DNA of 55,227 nucleotides from a virus (Duplodnaviria; Heunggongvirae; Uroviricota; Caudoviricetes), in IMG/VR virus record IMGVR_UViG_2718218434_000004, positions 1-55,227 of that record. One strand, given 5' to 3'. This document shows positions 16,486-17,259 of the stretch, piece after piece. Numbering within the stretch: position 1 is the first letter of the stretch; each line of letters starts with the position of its first letter. A program made the translations under genes and the position numbers. The notes under the pieces are model-generated. The model was not told the DNA's origin, searched no databases, and saw only the letters and a list, made by a program, of their open reading frames with translations.

Positions 16486-17259
16486 ATGGATATTACTGAG
16501 TTTCCTTCTGGAGTAATTGAACACCTTGGCTGGTATGTATACCGATTGATTGATCCGAGGGACGGAAGCACCTTCTATGTAGGGAAAGGCAAAGGTAACC
16601 GCGTATTTGCCCATATGCGCGGTGAAGTGGCAGCGACTGATGATGACGAGTTACTGAGCAACAAGCTAAAGCAAATTAGAGAAATAAGATTAGCGGGACT
16701 TGAAGTTATCCATGTCATCCATCGACATGGAATGACTGATGAAAAGACGGCGTACGAAGTTGAAGCAGCACTTATTGATGCCTACCCTGGGTTAACGAAT
16801 ATCATGAATGGTGCTGGCAGCAATGAATTCGGCGCCGCGCATGTCAAAGAGTTGATAGCAACATATCAACCCGAAACCATAACATTTCATCATAAAGCAT
16901 TAATGATTTCCGTTAACAGAAGTGCAAAGGATTCAGAGCTTTATGATGCGGTTCGATTTAGCTGGCGCATTAATGTCTCTCGCGCCAGCCAAGCAGAAGT
17001 CATTCTTGCTACTGTAAGGGGGATCGTTCGAGGGGTTTTCATTGCTGATAAATGGCTCAAATCAACACGTGAAAATTTCCCTACGATGAAATACTGGGAC
17101 GAGGATCCGGACTTTGAGGCAACACAAAGTTCTCGCTATGGTTTTGAAGGTCGAGAAGCCCCACCTGAAATAGCAAATCTTTATCTTGGAAAAAAAATAC
17201 CAGATGAATTAAGAAAAAAAGGAGCTATGTCCCCGGTCCGTTACTCACCTAATTTTTGA
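16486..17259 (+). CDS. GIY-YIG nuclease-domain protein with uncharacterised C-terminal domain
   Basis: Start at MDITEF; WYVYRLID...[17 protein letters not shown]...AYEVEAALI fits the GIY...YIG...R...E core. Confidence 0.55.

Follow-up and report, generated by a model that had tools for sequence, protein, structure and literature searches.

The stretch of DNA analysed here, referred to below as the window, comprises 55,227 nucleotides (nt) of a record of the Caudoviricetes (IMG/VR record IMGVR_UViG_2718218434_000004). Its att repeats bound a 40.4-kb SfII/SfV-like prophage integrated in the tRNA-Thr gene (thrW). This prophage contains a set of cargo genes located between one att repeat and the invertible tail-fibre segment, in the following order from att: (i) a gene for a 488-amino-acid (aa) protein (minus strand), (ii) a gene for a 139-aa protein (minus strand), (iii) a "capsid protein" remnant, (iv) a gene for a GIY-YIG nuclease (plus strand) and (v) the invertase gene pin (minus strand). 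The GIY-YIG gene, which is the subject of this analysis, belongs to the CMoRE/PD-T4-3 family. Judging from a characterised protein with 98.4% sequence identity, it very probably (about 0.93) encodes an active enzyme of this family.

The CMoRE open reading frame (ORF) is intact. An earlier note on this sequence had recognised the ORF correctly but gave its product as 258 aa, since the stop codon had been counted. An in-frame TTG at 16435 would lengthen the ORF by 17 aa; the RefSeq copy of the identical gene (WP_000355484.1) starts at the ATG, and the crystallised proteins likewise start with MDITEF. Exactly the same protein sequence is found on at least 1000 contigs, with no decay. A search of the PDB sequences gave two proteins only, 9U75/9U8D (phmmer E = 3.7e-172) and 9U7U/9U7Z (E = 1.1e-150), which are the CMoRE proteins of Escherichia coli O157:H7 and APEC O1, respectively (data-availability statement, PMC12923530). 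The window protein aligns with both without gaps, sharing 253 of 257 residues (98.4%) with the O157:H7 protein and 85.2% identity with the APEC O1 protein (9U7U). The PADLOC profile for PD-T4-3 (PDLC04031) covers the whole protein (positions 1-256 of 256; E = 2.4e-140), and the PHROGs match is phrog_5356 (E = 2e-143).

The earlier note had proposed a GIY-YIG core, and this assignment was confirmed both by the identity to a solved GIY-YIG nuclease and by a profile search. Pfam model PF22945 (LEM-3-like GIY-YIG) matched aa 28-110 (54.2 bits, cut-off 27; E = 2.1e-14); the motifs of the core are placed at aa 16-23 (WYVYRLID), 31-43 (the middle motif) and 91-97 (EVEAALI). The canonical GIY-YIG model PF01541 remained under the Pfam gathering threshold with the window protein (13.9 vs 22.6 bits). 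This is no argument against the GIY-YIG fold, which is settled by the sub-family model together with the crystal structures, and the failure of one model and success of the other are consistent with the view of the authors of PMC12923530 that CMoRE constitutes a distinct GIY-YIG branch. The positions of the gene, its domains and the other features of the region are presented in Table 1.

Table 1. Features of the CMoRE cassette, the adjoining cargo genes and the prophage ends (positions in the window).
Feature	Position	Strand	Remarks
CMoRE/PD-T4-3 gene	16486..17259	+	ATG start, TGA stop 17257-17259, 257 aa, intact
N-terminal GIYxY-YIG nuclease	16486..16830	+	PF22945 at aa 28-110; compared with the residues mutated in PMC12923530
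Acidic run D52 D53 D54 E55, autoinhibitory loop over the active site	16639..16650	+	Role of the loop from the 4A mutant of the O157:H7 protein
C-terminal modification-sensing, 5-hydroxymethylcytosine-binding domain (Y127 to C-terminus)	16864..17256	+	Alignment to the crystallised O157:H7 protein; start approximate
Conserved upstream region travelling with the gene	16333..16485	+	Near-identical in four genomic contexts, including O157:H7 EC4115
Putative sigma-70 promoter	-35 TTGTGA 16425-16430, 17-nt spacer, -10 TAATAT 16448-16453	+	Inferred; 8/12 consensus matches
Upstream copy of the ~40-bp direct repeat bounding the CMoRE cassette	16262..16301		Imperfect copy of the pin terminator hairpin
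Downstream copy of the ~40-bp direct repeat	17284..17322		Within/overlapping the hairpin 17279-17320
Strong hairpin in the spacer separating CMoRE and pin (convergent genes)	17279..17320		13-15-bp stem; folding energy
pin/pinE serine invertase	17320..17874	-	184 aa as annotated, ORF extends to ATG 17910; Pfam Resolvase (3.2e-52) and HTH_7
"Capsid protein" pseudogene fragment (PGAP)	16193..16279	-	Annotation of the identical region in ECONIH4
139-aa cargo protein with predicted Sec signal peptide (MKYCYLIILSLTISSAQA)	15562..15981	-	RefSeq WP_001333214.1
488-aa solitary protein, N-terminal Mrr/Cap4/LmuA-type PD-(D/E)xK nuclease domain, helical C-terminal region	13780..15246	-	Fold and motif
att repeat, 48-bp copy of the 3' end of tRNA-Thr(CGU), cargo-side prophage end	13339..13386		Exact direct repeat
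Second att repeat copy, inside thrW	53782..53829		tRNA gene 53784-53859; adjoins integrase 52606-53769 (+)

PD-T4-3 was recovered as a GIY-YIG-domain system in a selection performed on the E. coli pangenome by Vassallo et al. 2022 (PMC9519451, where only the domain is named in the main text), and was linked to strain ECOR68 in PMC12923530. In the latter study, Liu et al. 2026 renamed the system CMoRE and described it as a single-gene type IV restriction endonuclease. Under its native promoter, O157:H7 CMoRE gave approximately 10^5-fold protection against phages T2, T4 and T6, without abortive infection. In the presence of Mg2+ or Mn2+ the enzyme degraded DNA containing 5-hydroxymethylcytosine (5hmC) or glucosyl-5hmC (5ghmC) and spared DNA containing cytosine or 5-methylcytosine (5mC); correspondingly, T4(hmC) remained sensitive to CMoRE while T4(C) was resistant. 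Two modified cytosines are needed, and the cut follows the pattern CN11/N9G, leaving 2-nt 3' overhangs (PMC12923530).

The same study described a two-domain structure, in which the N-terminal GIYxY-YIG nuclease carries Y17, Y19 and Y31. The active site is capped by a 15-residue acidic loop inserted between helices alpha2 and alpha3, and a mutant in which four acidic residues of the loop were replaced by alanine (4A) is toxic and attacks ordinary DNA. CMoRE function also requires a tetramer, which depends on V92/L96 and the beta1-beta2 loop. 5hm-dCTP is bound at the edge of the C-terminal domain via Y127's main-chain oxygen, and the fold of this sensor is, according to the authors, without a homologue (PMC12923530).

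Related proteins behave similarly. The 48%-identical homologue of Capnocytophaga (PD-T4-3Capno) degraded T4 DNA and left T4-GT7 DNA intact; at high dose, Mu DNA was degraded as well (PMC12366544). Deletion of PD-T4-3 in the native host NILS69 sensitised this strain to two phages restricted by the system, raising their plating, and the same gene expressed from a plasmid in K-12 restricted four Tevenvirinae phages. Cleavage of modified DNA and/or defence against T-even phages is known from the O157:H7, APEC O1, Klebsiella, ECOR68, NILS69 and Capnocytophaga homologues.

Comparison with the characterised proteins revealed that all of the residues Y17, Y19, Y31, R39, R80, V92, L96 and Y127 are conserved in the window protein. 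Regarding the catalytic Arg/Glu, R39 is present and E90/E92 lie within AYEVEAALI. The window protein is the same as the crystallised O157:H7 protein across aa 1-50 and 56-168, and thus also over the part of the tetramer interface that can be judged from sequence (aa 1-50, V92/L96). The four differences between the two proteins are T51A, E55D, Q169K and N197H. The acidic loop reads DDDE in the window and APEC O1 proteins and DDDD in that of O157:H7. Over residues 127-257 the alignment to both solved proteins is free of gaps, only Q169K and N197H distinguishing this part from the O157:H7 sequence. No Pfam model covers this C-terminal part of the window protein, which the earlier note had called an unknown domain, yet it has now been solved as a sensor of 5hmC and 5ghmC (PMC12923530). 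The O157:H7, APEC O1 and ECOR68 systems are members of the same family, each consisting of a single gene with a product of 257 aa. CMoRE/PD-T4-3 is already characterised; this gene is not new, and the earlier reading of it was right.

Functional analogues of CMoRE are found in the PvuRts1I/AbaSI family, whose members are also modification-dependent and specific for 5hmC and 5ghmC. They cut at a fixed distance of ~11-13/9-10 nt, which resembles CN11/N9G; PvuRts1I contains a PD-(D/E)xK nuclease and an SRA-like sensor, whereas CMoRE instead has a GIY-YIG nuclease. The two groups are unrelated in sequence, the search of the PDB sequences having matched CMoRE structures only. In PMC4027163 and PMC4081097, the PvuRts1I/AbaSI enzymes are described as single-chain proteins whose substrates are 5hmC and 5ghmC DNA, C and 5mC DNA being left uncut. 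A different relationship underlies the RefSeq name "LEM-3-like GIY-YIG domain-containing protein", which derives from PF22945, the model of the LEM-3/ANKLE1 nucleases and the best Pfam model for the window nuclease domain. Only the catalytic core is held in common (model positions 26-108 of 151): ankyrin and LEM domains were not found in the window protein, and its C-terminal domain is specific to CMoRE.

The structural module of the prophage is ~97% identical to those of Shigella phages SfII, SfI, SfIV and SfV and of induced E. coli phages. As the earlier note had stated, CMoRE stands alone on the plus strand, being the sole gene of this orientation between 11961 and 17910, and it is convergent with the invertase gene (17320-17910). 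Upstream of CMoRE, 1.24 kb separate it from the end of the 488-aa gene (15246 to 16486), in agreement with the 1.2 kb given in that note. The spacers described there as AT-rich are moderately, but not strongly, so (40-45% G+C, compared with 50% for the prophage); the G+C content of the CMoRE gene itself is 43.5%. The pin gene shows 88.9% nucleotide identity to pinE of e14, and this homology stops exactly at the stop codon.

The comparison of homologous prophages, which the earlier note had suggested, was carried out and revealed different genes at the position between pin or the tail-fibre assembly gene and the att end: mcrA in e14, gtrABV in SfV and a type II restriction-modification (R-M) system in KKa014. 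The designation of this position as a variable slot for defence genes and other cargo is therefore upheld. The e14 element, a cryptic prophage of K-12, shares the genes ymfQ, stf, tfa and pin with the window prophage, and McrA (EcoKMcrA) is encoded directly downstream of pinE, before the att end. McrA is likewise a type IV modification-dependent nuclease (PADLOC mREase_IV, E = 6.5e-203), but it is an HNH enzyme unrelated to CMoRE in sequence; its gene is co-oriented with pinE, whereas CMoRE is convergent, and its annotation is that of a methyl-directed enzyme, in contrast to CMoRE, which ignores 5mC. In SfV, which is ~97% identical over the structural module, the slot between the tail-fibre assembly gene and attP is occupied by gtrV, gtrB and gtrA, whose role is serotype conversion and not DNA restriction. 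No gtr genes for O-antigen modification are present at either end of the window prophage (13388-53781).

On its other side, pin adjoins the invertible tail-fibre segment (17901-20104). This contains alternative fibre C-termini (17901-18473, plus strand, and the 3' part of 19481-20104, minus strand) and opposed tail-fibre assembly genes (18473-19066, plus strand; 19038-19481, minus strand). The region 17900-19753 is missing from SfII, SfI and SfV; SfIV and vB_EcoM-720R4 match from 18785 on.

CMoRE genes (at least 95% nucleotide identity) were identified in 837 of 5426 complete E. coli genomes, at 869 places, and the entire 4.1-kb island in 25 genomes only. Pin-like genes are present at 4121 places in 3095 of the same genomes, and none of the 73 pin loci of other species contains CMoRE; the idea that CMoRE is a constant partner of pin was consequently rejected. 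Downstream of pin in other species, many loci run into chromosomal genes or are part of P2-type phages, whose layout is different.

CMoRE occurs in at least four genomic contexts. The gene order is AraC regulator, CMoRE, pinE in O157:H7 EC4115 (where CMoRE adjoins the invertase gene, as in the window) and IS1, CMoRE, pinE in strain D1. In a lambdoid prophage of KKa014, CMoRE and a type II restriction-methylase pair adjoin the tail-fibre assembly gene, while the window copy has the 139-aa and 488-aa genes as its neighbours. There is thus no constant partner, in keeping with a single-component system. The segment common to all four contexts is limited to window positions 16333-17320 (~1 kb), comprising the gene, 150 nt upstream of it and the hairpin. 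In the KKa014 locus (L004), the homology to the cassette begins inside the repeat (at 5787), and the type II R-M genes lie between this point and another copy of the repeat (2627-2664).

The existence of empty sites was examined using a synthetic query composed of the upstream flank, one hairpin and pin, which found colinear matches in 72 E. coli genomes. In isolate 2014-01-7375 (locus L094), window positions 13728-16297 are matched at 99.7%, after which the alignment resumes at 17282; this locus has no CMoRE, and its 488-aa and 139-aa genes are followed by a single hybrid hairpin and then pin. QDFD216 carries another cargo gene (497 aa), followed by the same single hairpin and pin, again with no CMoRE. 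The empty-site loci L093 and L094 each contain one hybrid repeat, made up of the left flank of the upstream copy and the right flank of the downstream copy. The fragment annotated as "capsid protein" is also present in KKa014 and QDFD216 and is part of the backbone under the cassette. SfV, SfII, SfI and SfIV lack CMoRE, as do these otherwise colinear prophages; the gene is not a conserved component of the tail module, an outcome that would have contradicted the earlier note.

Among the isolated phages of the phage collection, no CMoRE homologue exceeded 46% identity. Jumbo phages that infect Serratia, Pectobacterium, Pantoea, Pseudomonas (OBP) and Klebsiella (N1M2) code for full-length homologues (38-46% identity), which bear the annotation endonuclease, "putative homing nuclease" or hypothetical protein. 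A use of these homologues against rival phages whose DNA is modified is conceivable.

The 150 nt preceding the ATG of CMoRE differ from the O157:H7 sequence at 2 positions. Downstream, the sequence between the convergent CMoRE and pin genes folds into a hairpin with predicted energies of -24.5 kcal/mol (minus strand) and -19.8 kcal/mol (plus strand), corresponding to z = -4.1 and -4.5; none of 200 shuffled sequences was as stable. This hairpin is probably a bidirectional terminator serving both genes. The promoter/terminator scan reported no terminator at this site, probably because the predicted loop of ~11 nt exceeds the 8-nt limit of the scan.

On the basis of the mechanism demonstrated for the 98.4%-identical protein, the following may be proposed for the window copy. 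CMoRE would be transcribed from its own conserved upstream region, with transcription ending at the hairpin common to the convergent pin gene, and the product would form a dimer of dimers. At its edge, the C-terminal domain would bind 5hmC or 5ghmC, a dimer reading two modified cytosines located 21 bp apart, and the N-terminal GIYxY-YIG nuclease would cut between them (CN11/N9G), generating 2-nt 3' overhangs. The acidic loop (D52-E55) over the active site would repel unmodified or 5mC-containing DNA, so that the host chromosome would be spared, while entering T-even phage DNA would be degraded directly, with no abortive infection. A ~1-kb cassette, placed in the cargo slot between the tail fibres and att of an SfV-like thrW prophage, would in this way guard the lysogen against phages with hydroxymethylated cytosine.

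Several observations weigh against this proposal. Two of the four substitutions (T51A and E55D) touch the autoinhibitory loop and the other two (Q169K and N197H) are located in the sensing domain; activity or specificity could therefore be shifted. The APEC O1 allele defended only weakly under its native promoter (PMC12923530), and some sensitive phages evade PD-T4-3 in NILS69, its native host, which leaves the degree of protection of this lysogen uncertain. In addition, a consensus scan (threshold 9/12) found no plus-strand promoter upstream of CMoRE. Taken further, the scan result and the weak APEC O1 allele would fit a gene that is intact yet silent or too weakly expressed in this prophage, giving little protection and persisting as hitch-hiking cargo; the fact that phage NIC06_P2 was restricted only when PD-T4-3 was expressed from a plasmid points the same way. 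We consider this very unlikely, given that the near-identical upstream 150 nt belong, in O157:H7, to a gene that defended strongly from a native-promoter construct, that exactly this protein sequence occurs without decay on at least 1000 contigs, and that removal of PD-T4-3 from its native host increased phage plating.

It is even less probable, to the point of being hardly credible, that CMoRE acts as a selfish homing endonuclease of the GIY-YIG type, the cassette spreading because empty sites are cut and it is then copied into them, and not because it defends host or prophage. GIY-YIG domains are typical of homing endonucleases, and the gene does form a discrete 1-kb presence/absence cassette between direct repeats. 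Moreover, homologues with 38-45% identity in Pseudomonas and Klebsiella jumbo phages bear the label "putative homing nuclease", and that of Serratia phage Moabite is labelled "G-I-Y Y-I-G endonuclease". However, the gene is inserted neither in an intron or intein nor in a host gene, and in place of the DNA-binding modules of the I-TevI type, which are absent, CMoRE has a 5hmC-binding domain. The near-identical protein leaves unmodified DNA uncut, so an empty site in E. coli DNA cannot be cleaved, and the defence phenotype is known from deletion and cloning experiments on homologues. This explanation was rejected as largely refuted by the lack of cleavage of unmodified DNA, the 5hmC sensor and the defence phenotype. 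The identification of the gene as an active modification-dependent restriction enzyme of the CMoRE family remains the preferred one.

The neighbouring 488-aa protein, which the earlier note had called Mrr-like, has no significant Pfam match of its own, and the label is supported at the level of the predicted fold. This is of the restriction-endonuclease-like type with a D...(E/Q)xK motif. The family consists of solitary proteins of ~485 aa in Gammaproteobacteria, Burkholderia and Bacteroidota; residues D36, E40, R71-G-R-D74 and Q88-C-K90 are invariant in 41 members, 19 of which weakly match the Pfam model Mrr_cat. The best whole-length Foldseek matches are the LmuA chains of Lamassu, which are weak (E = 5e-3), in agreement with an equally weak PADLOC match to LmuA (E = 0.0036). 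A gene for an LmuB-like SMC ATPase is not adjacent in the window, where the flanks are the 139-aa gene and the att site, nor in the Enterobacter and Stutzerimonas loci examined. The nearest ATPase-type genes, a pair with RVT_1 and AAA_15/AAA_23 domains, are found in one Enterobacter locus (L085), at a distance of 5-7 kb. The absence of an LmuB partner and the weakness of the LmuA similarity led us to reject a Lamassu identity for this protein. The Enterobacter homologues lie in the remnant of a P2-like prophage, and those of Stutzerimonas border a small element that carries an integrase. A profile of the family gave only chance-level matches to PDB sequences, PADLOC 2023 does not include the 488-aa protein, and nothing relevant emerged from literature searches with its accession or on orphan LmuA-like genes. 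We tentatively suggest, as a possibility with the odds against it, that this solitary nuclease, with its helical domain of ~300 aa, is an undescribed single-gene anti-phage system forming a second layer beside CMoRE, and that the slot holds independently exchangeable cassettes which recombine at copies of the pin hairpin.

The 139-aa protein has no Pfam, PADLOC, NCBIfam or PHROG match, and none of the three cargo proteins is matched by an NCBIfam model. In E. coli, the 139-aa gene is found together with the 488-aa gene, an association not seen in the other genera looked up.

The part of the window to the left of the prophage (1-13338) contains a separate element, inserted in tandem at thrW, to which a P4-type integrase gene (11961-13175) belongs. 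This element also encodes (i) an AntA-domain protein (10053-10886), (ii) an Ash-family protein (8817-9884) and (iii) a zinc-ribbon/Toprim primase (5508-6857). With this set of genes it looks like a phage satellite of the P4-like or PICI-like type. No Pfam or PADLOC match was obtained for two further genes, coding for proteins of 701 aa and 246 aa (2636-5481), which could belong to the cargo of the satellite. PADLOC identified no defence system in this left-hand island, the only hit being a weak match of PDC-S22 to the AntA-domain protein.

The family of the 488-aa nuclease is widespread and carried on mobile elements. For CMoRE, the repeat-bounded cassette and the matching empty sites provide a concrete picture of the movement of this gene between prophages. 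In prophages of the SfV/e14 type, the slot following pin is filled, depending on the strain, by McrA or CMoRE, type IV enzymes that are unrelated to each other. One prophage position is thus reused for differing cargo of benefit to the lysogen, including serotype conversion in the Shigella phages.
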